Source: a bacterium
GTDB taxonomy: Bacteria > Zhuqueibacterota > Zhuqueibacteria > Residuimicrobiales > Krinioviventaceae
Direction: 5' to 3'
Assembly (NCBI GenBank): GCA_963693055.1
Contig: OY843751.1
Coordinates: 2,112,001 to 2,176,000, forward strand
Length of the DNA: 64,000 nt
The position numbers were made by a program, and so were the translations under genes. Shown one piece after another: positions 53,106 to 63,965 of the stretch (positions within the stretch are counted from its first letter, which is position 1; each line of letters starts with the position of its first letter). Below the pieces are notes generated by a model, which ran no database searches, was not told the origin of the DNA, and saw only the letters and a list, made by a program, of their open reading frames with translations.

Positions 53106-54866
53106 ATGATGGCCGACGAGAAAAATTTAATAAATGCAGAAGTTGTCGCAGTTTACCCTAATAAAGTTAAAATTTCAATTGATGATTTGAACAAGTTTAT
53201 AAAAATTGATGATCAAGTTGAAAAGTTAAAAGTTGGATCATATTTGGAAATTGCAGATGACGAAAATCATAAGCTAATTGCAATTATTGAGAGTTATTCC
53301 ATAGTTATAGATGAAAATAAGGAAAATAAACGATCTTATATTATTGAAGCAAATCCGCTTGGTATTATTGAAAATAAAAAGTTTTCACGTGGGGGTGATT
53401 CATTAACAATTCCGCCTACAAAAGTACAGCCAGCAAAGCAGGATGATATAGATGCAATTTTTAATTCGCAGATTACCGATAAAGAAAGATTTTGTTTCTC
53501 AAAATTAGCTCAAAATGAAAAGATAGAAACGCCTGTAAATGGCAATAGATTTTTTAATAAGCATTTTGCAATTGTTGGTTCAACTGGATCAGGGAAATCT
53601 CATACCGTTGCAAAAGTTCTTCAGGAAGCCATAAATAAGAAGAAAGATCAATTTGATGATTTGAATAATTCACATATTATATTATTTGATATTCATGGTG
53701 AATATAAAAGGGCTTTTCCTAAATGTAATTACTTGCAGGCTGAAAATTTAACTTTGCCATATTGGATGTTAAATGAATCAGAACTTGAAGAATTATTCCT
53801 AGATACTGGAGATAGAAATAATTATAACCAATCCTCTATTTTAAGACGAACAATCATTGAAAACAAGAAAAAACATAATCAAGGTGATAAAATTCATTTT
53901 GGAACACCGGTTAAATTTGATGTTGATGAAGTCTATAATTGTTTATACAATTTTCAACATGAGACAGTAGATGCTAATAGTAATTTATGTGTAAAAAAGG
54001 TGGAAGAAGATATCCTTTGTGATAATATCGAAGATAAATATAAAAAGTTCTTTCCAGAAAGAATAGATTTTAAAGTTCCAGTAAGGTCACAAATTAAAAA
54101 TGGTATTTTCGCTGATGGAACATTAGATAAATTTATTGATAGGTTTGAGAATAAAATTTATAATAAAAGATTAGATTTCTTATTTGGACAAGATTCTCGA
54201 GATGCTTCATTTGAAGATACCATGAAACAATTTGTTGGTTATAAAATTGATGAATCAAAAGAAGATAATAATATTACCATAATTGATTTAGGTGGTGTAC
54301 CATTTGAAGTATTAAGTATTACGGTTTCATTAATAACTCGGATACTTTTTGAATTTGGTTTTTATTTTAAAAAATATCTTGAAAATAATGATAATGATTG
54401 TGAAACTCCTTTATTATTAATTTATGAAGAAGCACATAATTATGTTCCTAAAAGTGAATTAGCAAAATATCGTGCCTCAAAAAATGCCATTGAGAGGATT
54501 GCAAAAGAAGGTCGAAAATATGGTGTAACACTTGGAATTGTGAGTCAAAGACCTTCAGAAATTTCAGAGACCATTTTTTCACAGTGTAATACTTTTATTG
54601 CCATGCGACTAACAAATCCAGATGATCAAAATTATGTAAAAAGATTACTCCCAGATTCAATGGGTAACATTACTGAAGCTTTACCATCATTGAAAACAGG
54701 GGAAGCATTATTAATTGGTGAGTCTATAGAAATGCCGTGTATTGTTAAAATTGACAAGTGTGATAAATATAAACCATCTTCCAATGACATTGATTATATT
54801 GAAATATGGCAAGAACAATGGAAAAATGTTGATTTTGCAAAAATTGTTGAAGAATGGAAAAAATAA
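53106..54866 (+). CDS. HerA/FtsK-like ATPase (DUF87), defence-associated
   Basis: GSTGSGKS, FDIHGEY, LIYEEAH, ERIAKEGRKYG, SQRPSE; RBS AGGAG. Confidence 0.92.
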   Translation: MMADEKNLINAEVVAVYPNKVKISIDDLNKFIKIDDQVEKLKVGSYLEIADDENHKLIAIIESYSIVIDENKENKRSYIIEANPLGIIENKKFSRGGDSLTIPPTKVQPAKQDDIDAIFNSQITDKERFCFSKLAQNEKIETPVNGNRFFNKHFAIVGSTGSGKSHTVAKVLQEAINKKKDQFDDLNNSHIILFDIHGEYKRAFPKCNYLQAENLTLPYWMLNESELEELFLDTGDRNNYNQSSILRRTIIENKKKHNQGDKIHFGTPVKFDVDEVYNCLYNFQHETVDANSNLCVKKVEEDILCDNIEDKYKKFFPERIDFKVPVRSQIKNGIFADGTLDKFIDRFENKIYNKRLDFLFGQDSRDASFEDTMKQFVGYKIDESKEDNNITIIDLGGVPFEVLSITVSLITRILFEFGFYFKKYLENNDNDCETPLLLIYEEAHNYVPKSELAKYRASKNAIERIAKEGRKYGVTLGIVSQRPSEISETIFSQCNTFIAMRLTNPDDQNYVKRLLPDSMGNITEALPSLKTGEALLIGESIEMPCIVKIDKCDKYKPSSNDIDYIEIWQEQWKNVDFAKIVEEWKK

Positions 54867-54881
54867 TTTCATGACAAAAAA

Positions 54882-55280
54882 ACCGAATCCCAAATCGACC
54901 AATTCGCCATCGAGCATCTGAAGCACCAGGTGGAAAATCTTGTAATCAATATTATAAAGGTTTAGCATGGATGATTTAACAAATGACCAGTCTCGTTTTT
55001 TATTTTATACAAATCAAGATGGAACAATTAATATAGATGTTGTTATACAGAATGAATCCGTTTGGCTTACTCAACAAACCATAGCTACATTGTTCGGAGT
55101 TGGAAGACCAGCTATTACAAAATATTTGAAAAATATAATTGATTCGGGTGAACTGCAACAGGATTCAGTATGTTCCATTTTGGAACCTACTGAAATTTGT
55201 GATAATAATGATCGATTGACCGAGCAAAAAGATGAAACATAAAATCACCGAATCCCAAATCGAACAATTCGCCATCGAGC
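54882..55280 (+). repeat. 34-bp direct repeat of the hsdR 5' end
   Basis: ACCGAATCCCAAATCGA(C/A)CAATTCGCCATCGAGC at 54882-54915 and 55247-55280. Confidence 0.9.
54967..55242 (+). pseudogene. Truncated RhuM-like DNA-binding protein
   Basis: ESVWLTQQTIATLFGVGRPAITKYLKNI..SGEL..DSVCSILE, then diverges. Confidence 0.75.
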
Positions 55281-58200
55281 TGCTGGAAAAACAGGGCTTT
55301 GAATATATCTATGCGCCTGATATTGCCCCGGACAGTGACGCACCGGAACGACAATCCTTTGAAGAGGTGCTGCTGCTGGACCGTCTGCGCAATGCTGTCA
55401 ACCGCATCAATCCATTCATTCCCTCAGATGTTAGGGAAGACGCCATCAAACAGATCCAGCGTCTGGTTTCACCTGAACTCATTGCCAATAATGAAACCTT
55501 TCACCGTATGCTTACAGAAGGCATAAAGGTCACGTATCAAAAAGACCTGCCTGCGTCCGCAGGACAGGCAGGGGGGCGCGAACAACGCGGTGACCTGGTC
55601 TGGCTCATTGATTTCCACAATCCGGATAACAATGATTTTGTGGTGGCCAACCAGTTTACCGTTATCGAGAACAATGTCAATAAACGTCCTGATGTGATCT
55701 TGTTTGTTAACGGCATTCCCCTGGTGGTGATCGAGCTCAAGAACGCGGCTGATGAAAACGCCAATGTCAAATCGGCATTTAAACAGATGCAAACCTACAA
55801 GCAGGAAATTCCCAGCTTGTTTACCTATAACGGATTCATGATCATCTCTGACGGTTTGGAGGCCAGGGCCGGTACCATCTCGGCCGGATTCGCCCGCTTT
55901 ATGGCCTGGAAAACATCGGACGGCAAGGTAGAGGCTTCGCCGCTCATCGGCCAGTTGGAAACCCTCATCAAAGGCATGCTGCAAAAAGAGACCCTGCTCG
56001 ACCTGGTCCGTCATTTCATCGTGTTTGAAAAATCCAAAAAAGAGGACCGCAAAACCGGTGTCATCACCATCGAGACTTTGAAAAAGCTGGCAGCCTATCA
56101 TCAATACTATGCGGTGAACCGGGCAGTGGAATCCACGTTGAGAGCATCGGCATATCTTGAACCAAATACTGATAGTAACAAGGTTAAGGAATCTCCGGCT
56201 TCTTATGGCGTGCCCGGTGTGGATGCTCAACCTGTAGGAGACCGCAAGGGAGGCGTGGTCTGGCATACTCAGGGCAGCGGCAAGTCCTTGTCCATGGTAT
56301 TCTATACCGGCAAAGTTGTGCTGGCTATGGAGAATCCCACCGTGGTTGTTATCACGGACAGAAACGACCTGGATGATCAATTATACGATACCTTTGCCGC
56401 CTCCAAGCAGCTCCTCAGGCAGGAGCCGGTGCAGGCGAAAACGAGGGACCATTTAAAAGACCTGCTCACAGTTGCATCCGGTGGCGTGGTCTTTACCACC
56501 ATCCAGAAATTTTCTCCTAATGAAGGCAATGTATACGAGACCTTGTCCCACCGTGGGAATATTGTGGTCATTGCGGATGAAGCGCACCGCACCCAGTATG
56601 GCTTTCATGCCAAGACCATTGATGCCAAAGACGAGAGCGGCAAGGTGGTTGGTAAAAAGATCGTTTATGGGTTTGCCAAGTATATGCGTGATGCTTTGCC
56701 CAACGCAACCTATCTGGGATTCACCGGTACTCCCATTGAAAGCACGGATGTGAATACCCCTGCGGTTTTCGGCAACTATATCGATGTGTATGACATCCTG
56801 CAGGCGGTTGAGGACAAGGCAACCGTTCCTATTTACTATGAGAGCCGACTCGCTAAAATCAACCTGAGTGAAGAAGGCAAAAAGCTGATAGATGAGCTGG
56901 ATAAAGAACTGAAAGAGGATGACCTCACCGACAGTCAGCAGGCCAAAGCCAAATGGACACAGCTTGAAGCGCTCATTGGCAGCCATGATCGCATTAAACG
57001 GGTTGCTCAGGATGTTGTTGCCCATATTGAAGAACGCCAAAAAGTGTTTGCGGGCAAGGCCATGATCGTTGCAATGTCCCGCAGGATTGCTGCGGAACTG
57101 TACAAAGAGATTATAGCAATCAGACCCGAGTGGCATGATGATGATTTGAAAAAAGGAATGATCAAGGTGGTCATGACTTCCTCATCTGCTGACGGTCCCG
57201 AGATCGCCAGACACTATACATCCAAAGAACAGAGACGTTATTTGTCAGACCGTATGAAAGATGTCGATGATGAACTGAAACTGGTGATCGTCCGGGATAT
57301 GTGGCTCACCGGATTTGATGTGCCCTGTATGCATACCCTGTACATCGACAAACCCATGAAGGGCCACAACCTGATGCAGGCCATTGCACGGGTGAACCGC
57401 GTTTATCATGATAAAAAAGGCGGTCTCATAGTGGATTACCTTGGCATTGCATCAGACCTCAAAAAAGCATTGTCCTTTTACTCGGACAGCGGTGGCAAGG
57501 GTGATCCAGTTATTGCGCAGGAAGAAGCCGTACAGATAATGTTGGAAAAGCTGGAAATCGTTACCCAAATGTATCATGGATTTGCCTATGAAGATTATTT
57601 TGAAGCAGATACCGGCAAAAAGCTCTCCATGATCCTTGCTTCAGAAAACCACATCTTGGGCCTGGAGGATGGCAGGAAGCGATACATCAATGAAGTCACT
57701 GGGTTGTCCCAAGCTTTTTCTATTGCTGTGCCTCATGAACAGGCAATGGATGTTAAGGATGAGGTATCTTTTTTTCAGGCAGTCAAAGCCAGGCTGGTGA
57801 AATATGAAAGTACCGGCAACGGCAAAACCGATGAAGAAGTAGAGACCGTCATCCGGCAGGTAATCGACCAGGCGCTGGTGAGCGAACAGGTCATTGATGT
57901 GTTTGATGCTGCCGGAATCAAGAAACCGGACATCTCGATCCTGTCGGAAGAGTTTCTGCTCGAAGTCAAAAATATGAAACACAAGAACATTGCCATTGAA
58001 GTACTGAAAAAACTGCTCAATGACGAAATCAAATCCCGTATGAAAACGAACCTGGTCCAGAGCAAATCGCTCATGGAAATGCTGGAAAGCTCGATCCAGA
58101 AATATCATAACAAGATCCTGACTGCTGCAGAGTTTATGGAGCATCTCATCGAGTTGGGCAAGCATATCCAAAATGCCGACAAAGAGCCGGAAGAAATGGG

Positions 58201-58486
58201 ACTCTCTGAATTTGAATACGCTTTTTACACTGCAATCGCCAATAACGACAGTGCGCGTGAACTGATGCAAAAGGACAAGCTCCGCGAGCTGGCAGTGGTT
58301 CTGTTTGAAAAAGTAAAAGCCAACGCCTCCATCGACTGGACCATCAAAGAGAGTGTAAAATCCAGGCTCAAGGTTATTGTCAAGCGCACGCTCCGGCAGT
58401 ACGGTTATCCACCGGACATGCAAAAACTCGCCACCGAAACCGTACTCAAACAAGCCGAGATGATAGCGGAGGAGTTGGTGGGGTAA
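55232..58486 (+). CDS. hsdR: Type I restriction endonuclease subunit R
   Basis: RPDVILFVNGIPLVVIELK, WHTQGSGKS, DEAHR, FTGTP, TGFDVP, QAIARVNR. Confidence 0.97.
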   Translation: MKHKITESQIEQFAIELLEKQGFEYIYAPDIAPDSDAPERQSFEEVLLLDRLRNAVNRINPFIPSDVREDAIKQIQRLVSPELIANNETFHRMLTEGIKVTYQKDLPASAGQAGGREQRGDLVWLIDFHNPDNNDFVVANQFTVIENNVNKRPDVILFVNGIPLVVIELKNAADENANVKSAFKQMQTYKQEIPSLFTYNGFMIISDGLEARAGTISAGFARFMAWKTSDGKVEASPLIGQLETLIKGMLQKETLLDLVRHFIVFEKSKKEDRKTGVITIETLKKLAAYHQYYAVNRAVESTLRASAYLEPNTDSNKVKESPASYGVPGVDAQPVGDRKGGVVWHTQGSGKSLSMVFYTGKVVLAMENPTVVVITDRNDLDDQLYDTFAASKQLLRQEPVQAKTRDHLKDLLTVASGGVVFTTIQKFSPNEGNVYETLSHRGNIVVIADEAHRTQYGFHAKTIDAKDESGKVVGKKIVYGFAKYMRDALPNATYLGFTGTPIESTDVNTPAVFGNYIDVYDILQAVEDKATVPIYYESRLAKINLSEEGKKLIDELDKELKEDDLTDSQQAKAKWTQLEALIGSHDRIKRVAQDVVAHIEERQKVFAGKAMIVAMSRRIAAELYKEIIAIRPEWHDDDLKKGMIKVVMTSSSADGPEIARHYTSKEQRRYLSDRMKDVDDELKLVIVRDMWLTGFDVPCMHTLYIDKPMKGHNLMQAIARVNRVYHDKKGGLIVDYLGIASDLKKALSFYSDSGGKGDPVIAQEEAVQIMLEKLEIVTQMYHGFAYEDYFEADTGKKLSMILASENHILGLEDGRKRYINEVTGLSQAFSIAVPHEQAMDVKDEVSFFQAVKARLVKYESTGNGKTDEEVETVIRQVIDQALVSEQVIDVFDAAGIKKPDISILSEEFLLEVKNMKHKNIAIEVLKKLLNDEIKSRMKTNLVQSKSLMEMLESSIQKYHNKILTAAEFMEHLIELGKHIQNADKEPEEMGLSEFEYAFYTAIANNDSARELMQKDKLRELAVVLFEKVKANASIDWTIKESVKSRLKVIVKRTLRQYGYPPDMQKLATETVLKQAEMIAEELVG
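55546..55572. repeat. 27-bp palindromic in-frame insertion in hsdR
   Basis: CCTGCCTG-CGTCCGCAGGA-CAGGCAGG encoding LPASAGQAG. Confidence 0.75.
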
Positions 58487-60605: not shown

Positions 60606-62033
60606 ATGAAACTCAAAATTATTTGTTTTACTTACTGTCTATTTATCTCAATTAATAGTACAAGTTTTTCACAAGATTATTATGCAAATGGTCAGATTTT
60701 TAATGAATTGGATATCGCTCTTGATAGTTTATACATAAACAATGGTTACACTGGGATTTCTACTGCATTTTTATTACCTGATGGTCGTATTTGGACACGA
60801 GCAATAGGATATTCAAATATATCAACTTTAGAGAATCTTGATACATTGATGCTTCTCAGTGGTGCGAGTATTACAAAGACTTTTACTTCTTCTTTAATAC
60901 TCGAGTTATTAAATGAAAATTTTTTGAATTTAAGCGATTCTTTATATCAATGGTTACCTAGTTATAAAAATATTGATACTACTATTACAATTAAACAATT
61001 ATTAAATCATACAAGCGGAATATATGACTATTCTGAAAATGTACTTGGAAAAATATCAATTTTTTTAGATCCAGAAAAAATTTGGAAGCCAGAAGAAATA
61101 TTAGGATTCGTTGAAGAACCGTATTTTGATCCAGGTACTGATTGGAAATACTCTAATACTAATTATATATTATTAGGTATGATAGCAGAAAAAATAATTG
61201 ATAACTCGACAGTGTCAAATGAATTAAGACAAAGATTCTTTAATAAATATAATTTAAATCATACATTTTTTGAAATTAAAGAGGAAATACCGGATTCATT
61301 AAAAATTGCACATGGTTATATCGATGTTAATAATGATGGGATAAAGGATGATATTGAATTCTTTTCAAGAAATGCTATTTATAGTGCGGCTTGGGCAGCT
61401 GGTGCAATAGTTTCTACTCCAAAAGATTTAGTTAATTGGGCCAATTATTTATTTAATGGCAATGTGATAAATCAAAATTTACTAGATAAAATGATTGATT
61501 TTGAACCTGTTGATTTGCCTGAATCTTCACACATTATTGGTTATGGACTTGGGCTAATGCAATACAACATAAATAATTACGAATTTTGGGGGCACAGTGG
61601 AAATATACCTGGTTTTACTAGTGAATTGGTATATTCACCCGAGTTGGAAATTATTTTATGTGTATTGATTAATGAAAATGATGCAAATATAAATTATATA
61701 ACAAAGACTCTTGTTTCTACATTTACTAGTTTCAATACATCAATAAATAGATACGAAAGTAAAAATATTTCTAATTTTGAAATGTTAAATACCTATCCAA
61801 ATCCATTCAATCCTTTAACACATATTGTTTTTAAAAATTCAATCATGTCAAATGTAGCAATATCTATTTATAATCTAAAGGGACAACTTGTAGAAATTGT
61901 TTATGATCAGCAAACACCAGTAGGAACTCACAACGTGTTGTGGAATGCAAGCGAACAACCATCGGGTACCTATTTTATTAAGATGATTGCAGGTGAATTT
62001 CAGCAAATCCAAAAATGTATATTGATAAAATAA
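60606..62033 (+). CDS. Serine hydrolase (class C beta-lactamase/D,D-peptidase fold) with T9SS-type/FlgD-like C-terminal domain
   Basis: SITK (SxxK), LLNHTSG, YSN, GHSG; C-terminal YPNPFNP...IYNLKGQ...SGTYFI. Confidence 0.88.
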   Translation: MKLKIICFTYCLFISINSTSFSQDYYANGQIFNELDIALDSLYINNGYTGISTAFLLPDGRIWTRAIGYSNISTLENLDTLMLLSGASITKTFTSSLILELLNENFLNLSDSLYQWLPSYKNIDTTITIKQLLNHTSGIYDYSENVLGKISIFLDPEKIWKPEEILGFVEEPYFDPGTDWKYSNTNYILLGMIAEKIIDNSTVSNELRQRFFNKYNLNHTFFEIKEEIPDSLKIAHGYIDVNNDGIKDDIEFFSRNAIYSAAWAAGAIVSTPKDLVNWANYLFNGNVINQNLLDKMIDFEPVDLPESSHIIGYGLGLMQYNINNYEFWGHSGNIPGFTSELVYSPELEIILCVLINENDANINYITKTLVSTFTSFNTSINRYESKNISNFEMLNTYPNPFNPLTHIVFKNSIMSNVAISIYNLKGQLVEIVYDQQTPVGTHNVLWNASEQPSGTYFIKMIAGEFQQIQKCILIK

Positions 62034-62053
62034 GGAAAATTTTCCGGTAGGTT

Positions 62054-62082
62054 TTGGAAAAAAGGCGGTTATTTCATATAGT
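62054..62082 (+). promoter_or_regulatory. Candidate internal promoter of the element
   Basis: TTGGAA-N17-TATAGT. Confidence 0.45.
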
Positions 62083-62138
62083 ATTTAAAGGAAGTAACCG
62101 GAAGTCAAACAAGGATTTCAAAACTTACCGGAGGACAA

Positions 62139-62939
62139 ATGTACAATACTCGTAGTAGTTTGTATGACAGGATATTAGAAAAAACACCCGAGCAAGTATT
62201 CATCAATTCTTTACGAAAGGAATTTGAATTATCACCGGCAGAAAGTAAAGGGATATTGGATCTGGCAAAACAGTGTTTATTTGGCGAGGTTCCCCAGACA
62301 GTTGGTAAAATAAAATATATCTGCGCATCCACAAATGCAAAACATGGCAAGCCCCTGGGTGAGCAGGAATTGAAAGAAGTAGAGTTAACACTGGATGCTG
62401 GTGTAGAAGATTTAAATGTATTAAAGGAAAGCGGTCCCAAAGCATTACGGCAGCTAAAGGTATTGCGATTGACTGAAGAAGCCTGGGGCCAGGAAGGTTC
62501 TTTGACACAAGAGGATTTGGCCTGGATCCTCCAGGTTACGAGTCGCACTGTACGCCAGGATATAAAGGCATTGCAGGCAGACGGCAATTTTGTTCACACA
62601 CGCGGAACAGACCATGACATCGGTCGGAACTTGTCACACAAAAGCCGCATTATTGAACTGTATTTGCAGGGTGACACATACGATGCAATTATTCGTAAAA
62701 GTCGTCATAGTGCATTTTCAATAAAGCGATATGTGTGCAGCTTTGGCAGGCTATTACTTTTATTGAATCATGGTATGCAAGATATCAAGGAGATCAGTCG
62801 GTTATTAGGCCAAAGTGAGCGTTTGACCCGTGAATATCTGGATATTTTTGAGCATCATAAACAGGGTGACAAATGGCCGTCGATCTATGTAGAGTTATTG
62901 GACCAATTAAAGGTGTTATACCCCTCGAAAAAAAAATAA
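62139..62939 (+). CDS. DUF1670-like protein A
   Basis: LTEEAWGQEGSLTQEDLAWIL...TRGTDHDIG..SHK..I..LY..G...HS..SIKRY; RBS GGAGG. Confidence 0.8.
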   Translation: MYNTRSSLYDRILEKTPEQVFINSLRKEFELSPAESKGILDLAKQCLFGEVPQTVGKIKYICASTNAKHGKPLGEQELKEVELTLDAGVEDLNVLKESGPKALRQLKVLRLTEEAWGQEGSLTQEDLAWILQVTSRTVRQDIKALQADGNFVHTRGTDHDIGRNLSHKSRIIELYLQGDTYDAIIRKSRHSAFSIKRYVCSFGRLLLLLNHGMQDIKEISRLLGQSERLTREYLDIFEHHKQGDKWPSIYVELLDQLKVLYPSKKK

Positions 62940-62955
62940 ACCAAGGAGGGGAACG

Positions 62956-63771
62956 ATGAAGACTAAGCCTTTAAATCGTTATGAATCAATAGCTAAGCGT
63001 AGCTTTCAAAATGCTATTATTCGCTTACTGGAAGAAAATTATAAAATGTTAGGAAGCCATAAAGTCATCCGAATAATCGCAGAAGATATTGTCGCATTGC
63101 AAAATGAATTTTATCCGGAGCTGGAAAAGAAAAGTTTTGGTCAGATTATCTGGCGAACGACCAAAGCGACAAATCGAAAACCAAGCTATGGCACAAAAGC
63201 GGAAGATTATGAAGTTCAGACAGTTGTACTGCCATTGGTTACAGATGAAGACATTGACAATCGAATCAAGAGTCATTATTCTTATCGAGACAAAGATGGC
63301 AGAGCTGATTATGAGAAGCAGGTTGATCGGGATATTAAGGTAATGGCGCGGTTGTGCAAGAGTGCGGCGGAACAGGGTGGTTGGTTGACAGGCGCAGAAC
63401 TCAGTGTACTGTTAAATCGTTCATTAAACGCTATTGGTCGGTATATGACAATTTACCATGAAACACATGATGATATATTACCGACCAAAGGAATGATGCT
63501 GGATCAGGGCAGTAAGCCGACACATAAAGCCGCAATTATAGATTTATACGAGCAGGGCTATCCCGAACCGGATATCGCCCGGATCACAAATCACACAATT
63601 GAATCGACGAGTCGTTATCTCAAGACTTACAAGAACGTAAAGTTATTATTGGAAAAAGGTTTTAATTTAATGGAAATGGTAAGGATAACCGGATTAGGAA
63701 AAAAGACAATAACACAATATCGTGATCTGGTTTATCTTTATCATTCAGATTTAAAACAAAAGAAAACTTGA
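62956..63771 (+). CDS. DUF1670-like protein B (paralog of A)
   Basis: AAEQGGWLTGAELSVLL...PTKG..DQG..THK..I..LY..G...HT..STSRY; RBS AGGAGG. Confidence 0.8.
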   Translation: MKTKPLNRYESIAKRSFQNAIIRLLEENYKMLGSHKVIRIIAEDIVALQNEFYPELEKKSFGQIIWRTTKATNRKPSYGTKAEDYEVQTVVLPLVTDEDIDNRIKSHYSYRDKDGRADYEKQVDRDIKVMARLCKSAAEQGGWLTGAELSVLLNRSLNAIGRYMTIYHETHDDILPTKGMMLDQGSKPTHKAAIIDLYEQGYPEPDIARITNHTIESTSRYLKTYKNVKLLLEKGFNLMEMVRITGLGKKTITQYRDLVYLYHSDLKQKKT

Positions 63772-63808
63772 AAATTTGAAAAGGAATTTATAGGTTAGGT
63801 TGTCACAA

Positions 63809-63857
63809 TTTTTAGCTAACTCCAGTCGCCCTACGGGCTCCTTCCGTTAGCTAAAAA
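63809..63857. repeat. Hairpin motif, copy 2 (inside DUF1670 element right end)
   Basis: Stem TTTTTAGCTAAC/GTTAGCTAAAAA around TCCAGTCGCCCTACGGGCTCCTTCC. Confidence 0.85.
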
Positions 63858-63965
63858 AATGATTCAATCTTCTAATCTTAAAAAACAACCTACCGGAAAT
63901 ATTTCCTAAACGTAAATAGTGTTGTAACAATTAACAACTTTTAAAAAGGATAACGCTTTCATATA

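Follow-up and report, generated by a model that had tools for sequence, protein, structure and literature searches.

Insertion sequences are grouped by the DDE, DEDD, HUH, serine or tyrosine chemistry of their transposases, and IS110 elements are described with a core dinucleotide and circular forms (PMC11208160). For tyrosine recombinases, PMC8138268 names an RKHRH pentad and a tyrosine as the residues that define the family, and according to PMC10214605 a footprint of 6 bp originating from the donor flank accompanies Tn554 and the SE elements. The present analysis concerns the window, i.e. the whole 64,000-nt stretch of contig OY843751.1 under study, and therein a mobile element with two genes whose paralogous products, A and B, belong to the DUF1670 family. 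The element is a site-specific insertion sequence that codes for nothing but the DUF1670 pair. On the basis of conserved residues and predicted structures we tentatively regard this pair as a tyrosine recombinase or transposase derived from helix-turn-helix (HTH) modules and positioned outside the Int family. All coordinates are positions in the window, and residue numbers refer to protein A unless B is stated.

62030..63915, plus strand: DUF1670 element, 1,886 bp with the right AA counted in; the genome has 7 copies
62139..62939, plus strand: DUF1670 protein A, 266 amino acids (aa), PF07900
62956..63771, plus strand: DUF1670 protein B, 271 aa, PF07900, predicted architecture as in A

Conserved residues of the DUF1670 proteins

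Proteins A and B match PF07900 with 159 and 162 bits, respectively, against a curated cut-off of 25 (E ~1e-46) and are paralogous to each other (29% over 135 aa, E 7e-12). The preliminary description had quoted a C-terminal motif common to both and likened it to box II of Int/Xer tyrosine recombinases. Every position of this motif reads out in the two paralogs, and the pattern is family-wide rather than a product of chance. It is, however, not C-terminal, as it is followed by 68 residues in A and 50 in B, which hold a third HTH with a tyrosine of its own (Y233/Y255). The residues considered as candidate catalytic sets are located as follows.

62601..62732, plus strand: set of A, R155-G156-x3-D160-x-G162-x4-H167-K168...H190...R197-Y198, in the wing of a winged HTH and in the second HTH (HTH2)
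63487..63618, plus strand: counterpart in B, K178-G179...D183...H190-K191...H213...R220-Y221

Conservation was assessed on 220 aligned domains, taken from the 150 best-scoring cluster representatives and from the fetched loci, of which the 215 domains of at least 180 aa were kept. These fall into three clades: A with 105 domains, B with 93, and a degenerate one with 17, the last composed of N-terminal domains of fusions. The representatives were chosen as best scorers, which favours conservation. Within the 198 domains of the A and B clades both histidines and the tyrosine are near-invariant, which bears out the emphasis laid on them in the preliminary description: H167 is kept in 105/105 A and 92/93 B domains (197/198), H190 and Y198 each in 104/105 and 91/93 (195/198), the tyrosine being never replaced by Phe, and all three residues occur jointly in 193/198. 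D160 is kept in 97/105 A and 90/93 B domains. R155 is present in all 105 A and in 61/93 B domains (14 carry Lys), and K168 in 75/105 A and 90/93 B domains. From the Arg-Tyr pair closing the motif only the tyrosine is conserved, while the arginine is variable (71/105 A, 77/93 B). Of the motif-bearing frames in 80 loci fetched independently, 153/154 show the full pattern, as do 116/119 close homologues of A. At the position of H190, ordinary HTHs of the same genome carry Ile, Val, Met or Cys, and the tyrosine in the same register of the third HTH (HTH3) is kept more laxly, in 183/198 domains with Phe and His tolerated (Fisher p 0.006, the kin not being independent).

The degenerate clade has lost most of the set, as H167 (0/17), K168 (0/17), H190 (0/16), D160 (1/17), R155 (1/17) and Y198 (2/17) are absent or nearly so, and retains R110 (17/17), Q118 (16/17), P153 (16/17) and G156 (15/17). 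This joint loss of the His/Tyr set is suggestive of a catalytically dead partner domain. Apparent fusion proteins such as P0122-P0125 and P0152 comprise 500-950 aa, with a degenerate domain ahead of an intact one, and some contain four units.

Predicted structure, pairing and distribution

The AlphaFold models (A: pLDDT 89.8, pTM 0.74; B: pLDDT 85.4, pTM 0.70) predict three HTH units per protein. In A, N-terminal helices and a beta-hairpin are followed by a winged HTH (~98-162), HTH2 (165-210) and HTH3; R155 is placed in the wing, H167 opens helix 1 of HTH2, H190 lies in the turn and Y198 in helix 3. Both models are mainly helical, with one beta-hairpin and wing strands, and contain no RNase H-type sheet. 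Covariation over the 198 domains recovers the HTH contacts I171-S188, L174-K187 and K168-R197 and supports a packing of helix 1 of HTH2 next to the turn (I171-S188) and to helix 3 (K168-R197).

The matches listed by the fold searches were DNA-binding HTHs throughout, with best Z scores of 6.0-6.8 over 50-77 residues. Foldseek against the PDB and viral sets gave nothing at E 0.001, and a search of 48,161 chains gave no Z >= 8 for A or B, as did a second pass over 999 chains. A tyrosine recombinase does not occur among the best 50 matches listed, outside of which a further family may lie; the listed matches are HTHs only (Z <=6.8), and the caveat of the preliminary description that the helices could be HTHs is correct with respect to the fold. 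Family and cropped profiles searched against the sequences of solved structures likewise found HTHs or chance matches only. Residues 8-46, which bear on the question of a core-binding domain, form three predicted helices that are barely covered by the fold searches and have no Pfam match. In an Atlas search the whole protein retrieved DUF1670 clusters alone, whereas the motif alone retrieved HTH-type clusters with a score of <=0.79, which serves as a lead only.

A and B form separate clades and occur in a fixed gene order (first A, second B) in 20/20 pairs, and natural A-B fusions exist (P0126, P0127, P0138). This order, the fusions and the complementary conservation of R155 in A and K168 in B suggest an A-B partnership. 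In the copy of the window, the stop codon of A (62937-62939) stands at Gln267 of the compared copy (266 vs 275 aa), which removes 9 residues and the overlap with the start of B. Homologues with E <= 0.001 form 3,166 clusters at 50% identity.

The exclusive presence of DNA-binding HTHs among the structural matches, and the failure of Pfam, NCBIfam and PHROGs to reveal a known catalytic domain in any of 27 members, would be in line with proteins that bind DNA only, namely the element ends and the target in the manner of TnsD, and leave the cutting in trans to a host enzyme or another transposase. The distribution of the family argues against such a division of labour, as the two-gene layout recurs in 28/151 genomes of the own-phylum sample and in 17/301 of an Ignavibacteria-centred class sample, i.e. 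in two lineages, and the family is also present in Methanosarcina acetivorans, which served as control. Moreover, no helper with the same ends was found in the own genome, where the end motifs are confined to 13 elements and remnant ends and no neighbouring transposase is seen, and DNA binding by itself hardly accounts for two invariant histidines, one of which occupies an HTH position that is usually hydrophobic. We therefore leave a small chance to mere binding. From the same layout across lineages and the missing helper we infer that the element is very probably autonomous, with A and B as its likely recombinase.

Target site and joint

The copy in the window is inserted at the 3' end of a host gene, with the following landmarks.

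60606..62033, plus strand: host gene, encoding a beta-lactamase-family protein that ends in a secretion tail (PF00144, E 3.5e-39; PF18962 Por_Secre_tail, E 8.3e-12)
62028..62029, plus strand: left AA, host side, of the shared dinucleotide
63914..63915, plus strand: right AA of the shared dinucleotide
63916..63919, plus strand: displaced host bases, the third Lys-codon base and the original TAG stop (empty-site frame ...C-I-L-I-K-stop)

The target in the host gene is its last codon (Lys) together with the stop; the final base of this codon and a fresh TAA now come from the element. Since the first bases of the element rebuild the Lys codon and the stop, the host gene would be left unharmed. Rebuilt empty sites show a Lys-stop ending a secretion-tail-like peptide in 11/13 cases; of the other two sites, one is intergenic and one falls within the right end of a further copy. 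Both junctions share exactly AA in 13/13 copies of the own genome. This dinucleotide is delimited by the preceding base, which is not the same in host and element end, and by the following bases, which differ in the informative copies. The preliminary description had considered TAA as a crossover core in place of a target duplication. Neither role fits, as the TAA belongs to the element at both ends, beside each inverted repeat, and only AA is shared by the junctions.

From the relatives of the second element family in this genome (see below) 80 were taken, of which 11 lacked an end or a flank and 69 were scored. The joint is AA/AA in 66 of them (64 by script, 2 read from the script output), AG/AG in L046, AA/TG in L042 and AA with a single A on the right in L106; L045, the sister of L046, has AA/AA. 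Left joints other than AA were sought in 120 metagenome stretches and 13 of 14 genome matches, which produced 32 rows at Arg-stop tails, the majority of them remnants or incomplete, and several more complete cases: L170 (AG/AG), L126 (CG/CG, or one base short in an alternative reading), L145 (CG/TG), L011 (CA/AA) and the miniature elements L124 (TG/TG) and L281 (AT/AA). The resulting tally, from which several Arg-stop junctions with an unreadable far end are missing, comprises nine unusual junctions, four with matching sides (L046, L170, L126, L124) and five with differing ones (L145, L042, L011, L281, L106). The left pair is that of the host and the right one often follows it, and a fixed core borne by the element is therefore unlikely. 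As far as the junction sequences tell, both a target duplication and a footprint brought along from the site occupied before remain as explanations for the 2 bp.

The four matching junctions, with AG, CG or TG repeated on either side, also accommodate a transposase that works by metal- or histidine-assisted hydrolysis with a 2-bp staggered cut and duplication, where D160, H167 and H190 would bind the metal and the tyrosine would grip a phosphate. D160, H167 and H190 are indeed conserved like the tyrosine, which itself stands in a normal HTH register, and the AA/AA joint of L045 next to the AG/AG of its sister L046 fits as well. However, the five junctions that differ between their sides are expected of a carried footprint, the models are devoid of an RNase H-type sheet, and the ends are subterminal and asymmetric (4 vs 7-8 bases). 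A hydrolytic mechanism is judged rather unlikely, though it is the likeliest of the alternatives.

Joined ends or circles were found neither in the genome nor in the assembled contigs of sequencing runs nor in one metagenome scan, an absence that is uninformative as contigs drop rare forms. One apparent joined-end candidate turned out to be a further copy whose host tail is similar.

Comparison with Int/Xer tyrosine recombinases

The proposal of the preliminary description that DUF1670 is a divergent tyrosine recombinase is partly supported by the near-invariant Tyr, His and His and by a shared register, whereas a descent from Int/Xer finds no support in motifs, spacing or profiles; the Int/Xer label mostly fails, yet it points to the right residues. 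DUF1670 reads His-11-Gly-12-His-8-Tyr (H167-G178-H190-Y198) and six tyrosine recombinases of the own genome read Arg-11-Gly-12-His-9-Tyr, with H167 at the register of the second Int arginine. As in Int/Xer, the motif's last helix holds an invariant tyrosine after an invariant histidine, and one integrase of the own genome has V-E-R-Y at its nucleophile. These likenesses, together with the donor-flank footprint of Tn554/SE (PMC10214605) and the faint PF00589 matches given below, speak for DUF1670 as a far-diverged Int/Xer recombinase with HTH2 as box II.

The details of the site are at variance with such a membership. The His-to-Tyr spacing is 8 in 197/198 domains vs 9 in 5/6 own-genome recombinases and 10 in the remaining one. 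The box II signature H-x-x-R was not found in DUF1670, where position 164 is G/T/S/A, 165 hydrophobic and 170 variable (Arg in 14/105 A domains) and no histidine lies three residues before a basic one. A box I arginine at the usual distance is likewise missing, as R155 and R110 precede H167 by 12 and ~57 residues vs 83-113 in 5/5 full-length recombinases; the preliminary description had rightly cautioned that neither box I Arg nor HxxR is evident. Between arginine and H167 the model of A contains HTH helices and short wing strands, and the Lys-bearing, three-stranded beta-sheet is absent. A 6-bp overlap of the Tn554/SE type does not occur either, the element ends being invariant and the joint 2 bp in the own copies and nearly all complete relatives.

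Profile comparisons have a weak reach at such distances. With hhalign, the probability against the six own-genome recombinases was <=1% and within the range of shuffled controls. Of 30 cropped segments, Pfam assigned Phage_integrase (PF00589) to 2/30 (E 0.19) and HTH families to 12-14/30 (E 1e-3 to 4e-6), and an HTH2 profile with the four candidate positions masked found LuxR/sigma-4-type HTHs of the own genome and 0/7 recombinases. One HTH thus retrieved carries S-x2-RY in register and an Ile at the position of H190. The faint likeness to Phage_integrase is, to judge from these searches, one of shared HTH geometry. The Int active site is said to be built on HTH modules, as ascribed to Grishin in 2000, and a likeness would then arise without common ancestry. 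With a six-sequence recombinase profile, Cre is retrieved no better than at E 0.13, and so weak a reach may miss a remote kinship to Int/Xer. Taken together, we concede membership in the Int/Xer family a slim chance, and the candidate pocket likely has no kinship with the Int/Xer catalytic domain, or one too distant to be detected.

In their general organization Int/XerD/Cre, Tn554 TnpA/TnpB, RIT and SE proteins share with DUF1670 the invariant His-then-Tyr in an HTH-like helix pair and Arg/His/Lys companions, the occurrence of several paralogs together, the site specificity and possibly the donor-flank footprint. They differ in that the Tn554/SE recombinases carry RHRY (PMC10214605 and PMC8138268) and DUF1670 has neither RKHRH spacing nor HxxR, that DUF1670 has a three-HTH architecture without a match to a core-binding domain, and that RIT proteins are given as 315-410 aa vs ~270 aa for DUF1670.

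Target choice

A component of B likely to contact the target is the recognition helix of its winged HTH, the equivalent of which changes together with the target in a related family.

63415..63465, plus strand: recognition helix of the winged HTH of B (~residues 154-170 of B)

In one Poribacteria genome the element resides in a palindrome and not in a secretion tail (8/8 loci, and 2 more in another search). In the palindrome-site elements and L100 the recognition helix of B starts V-R-D-P-V-V-S-E-Y vs V-C-D-A-V-V-x-x-Y, with one further change in the wing, and protein A of the switched elements has two differences at well-conserved columns. At positions -13 to -8 the sites read YCGAGT in 9/9 cases with the changed helix and in 0/64 others, of which 48 read RATGNT. 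B therefore probably reads the target.

Subterminal repeats, a 2-bp joint, site specificity and a palindromic target are also reminiscent of IS1111, and in Poribacteria elements a promoter-like site precedes a structured-looking 130-nt tail, which brings to mind a target choice by RNA as in IS110/IS1111 (bridge or seek RNA) with the proteins as an RNA-bound recombinase. A guide is, however, not apparent: the longest element-target matches comprise 7-9 nt and lie mostly in coding DNA (7/7 elements), the non-coding ends of 43-292 nt are unalignable between families, Rfam found nothing of note in them, and the target switch tracks the protein helix. An RNA-guided choice is thus highly improbable. 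In the Poribacteria elements L071-L121 a strong sigma-70-like site faces outward ~130 nt from the right end, which is not present in the other families and in a circle would drive A and B.

Relation to other mobile elements and enzymes

By motif, the element fits none of the described transposase classes. IS110/IS1111 elements resemble it in subterminal inverted repeats, a 2-bp core and strict targets including palindromes (PMC11208160, PMC11187229). They differ from it in the DEDD RuvC (PF01548) and Ser (PF02371) domains, neither of which was found by Pfam in A, B or the 27 members, and the DUF1670 element has two genes, no guide-like RNA that we could find and a target that tracks a protein helix.

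Serine recombinases and IS607 act with a 2-bp crossover, comparable to the joint described here, and HTH2 resembles the resolvase HTH_7 (6/30 segments; the DNA-binding part of 2r0q matches with Z 5.3). The HTH alone matches, the resolvase catalytic domain is absent from DUF1670, and no serine is invariant in both clades (best S226, 100/105 and 61/93; S166 alternates with Thr). IS630/Tc1-mariner elements are DDE elements with a 2-bp junction repeat, a feature in common, and HTH-only matches to IS630 and IS21 transposase models are weak (5/27 and 4/27); as distinct from these, the DUF1670 models lack an RNase H-type sheet, the repeats are subterminal and the target is long and specific. The His-hydrophobic-His motif of HUH enzymes (IS200/IS605, IS91) was not found in DUF1670, whose invariant histidines are 23-24 residues apart. 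Topoisomerase VI A/Spo11 uses a tyrosine nucleophile on an HTH with a 2-nt stagger, and its winged HTH (1d3y) matches both models, with Z 5.9 and a root-mean-square deviation (rmsd) of 2.4 (61 aligned) in one and Z 5.7 and rmsd 2.2 (62 aligned) in the other. The DUF1670 tyrosine, in contrast, is situated in HTH2 outside the matched range and a Toprim domain is lacking; the match was dismissed as that of a generic winged helix, tied with ordinary regulators.

Element ends, genes and copies

The ends of the element and the start of gene A contain three further features.

62034..62053, plus strand: left subterminal inverted repeat, 20 bp, 18/20 matching the right repeat, 4 bases inside the joint
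63887..63906, plus strand: right subterminal inverted repeat, 7 bases inside the joint
62054..62082, plus strand: promoter candidate upstream of gene A, sigma-70-like (9/12, consensus match only)

The first 12 bp of the left and the last 12 bp of the right repeat each form a perfect palindrome, which is offset from the joint by 4 bases on the left and 7-8 on the right in the own copies and in relatives. Over seven compared elements only A and B are conserved as reading frames, and 0/4 of the other frames in the window had a Pfam match. A hidden antisense gene was rejected, as it is not kept over the seven elements and has no Pfam match, and so was a -1 frameshift fusing A with B, which misfits the frames, B being +1 to A by coordinates. 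Compared with another copy, synonymous to replacement codon counts of 29:11 in A and 46:16 in B show both genes to be under purifying selection.

The window copy differs from the other six copies of the 1,886-bp element at 177-181 positions (~10% diverged). A second family in the same genome, with ~30% likeness at the protein level, is a 1,852-bp DUF1670 pair in 6 copies, 6/6 of them identical. Multiple copies and the identity within the second family imply recent activity. Remnant single ends at G000:C1:1730449, 3844073, 5684747, 5975650 and 333440, four of them at secretion-tail stops, are older insertions whose bodies are lost. An element inside the right end of another recreates the target (G000:C1:509734-511585; L019, L181), and nested arrays arise via such insertion into the right end of another copy. 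In the miniature elements L124 and L281 both ends are present, ~80 and ~380 bp apart, and the genes are absent. L018, L021 and L024 represent a further family with another end palindrome and a B protein devoid of the wing arginine, which seems to target small hairpins. In the right non-coding end of the window copy a GC-rich stem-loop (63816-63853) without an Rfam match is found, which also occurs in an unrelated piece of contig.

Proposed mechanism

Consistent with the data described above we propose a first scenario for a reaction catalyzed by A and B as an HTH-derived tyrosine recombinase. Dimers would bind the 12-bp palindrome inside each end, and the winged-HTH helix of B would read target positions about -13 to -8, whereupon the element ends might be brought together. 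The DNA would then be cut by Tyr198 of A and Tyr221 of B in an HTH-derived pocket composed of Arg155, Asp160, His167, Lys168 and His190, and strands could be exchanged at the 2-bp joint via a covalent tyrosine-DNA link. Finally, the first bases of the element would restore the Lys codon and the stop.

Several observations weigh against this scenario. The four non-AA junctions with identical 2 bp on both sides are explained equally well by target duplication and hydrolytic chemistry. The degenerate domains constitute one clade with HTH2 diverged throughout (I171 0/17), whose loss of the set may reflect lost DNA binding. A tyrosine is ordinary at such an HTH position, as HTH3 has one and an unrelated HTH of the own genome has S-x2-RY in the same register. 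Finally, the target switch is a single evolutionary event, and covariation between domains gives weak hints only with 198 domains. A more inclusive proposal, which we put forward with still more reserve than the tyrosine chemistry itself, is that DUF1670 A/B represent a new recombinase class: a nearly all-HTH heteromer with a Tyr/His/His/Arg site evolved independently of Int/Xer, a 2-bp joint, a target exchangeable by few substitutions in the helix of B, and a codon-precise, gene-sparing insertion.

Neighbouring genes

Elsewhere in the window, the segment 52016-58486 begins with a gene beside one for a HerA-like ATPase (53106-54866), followed by a gene for a type I restriction subunit R-like protein (55232-58486), the names being derived from the translations. 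This segment is possibly a defence locus.

Significance of the DUF1670 family

The family was not named in the literature searched, with subscription papers and ISfinder lying outside the search. As no fit by motif to the DDE, DEDD, HUH, serine or tyrosine groups was obtained, its chemistry is probably undescribed, whichever is used. The family is widespread and recently active, and if A and B are indeed an HTH-derived tyrosine recombinase, they would represent a novel type of enzyme for moving DNA. Two small proteins that direct an insertion to one codon and repair it in the process could serve as a compact genome-editing tool.

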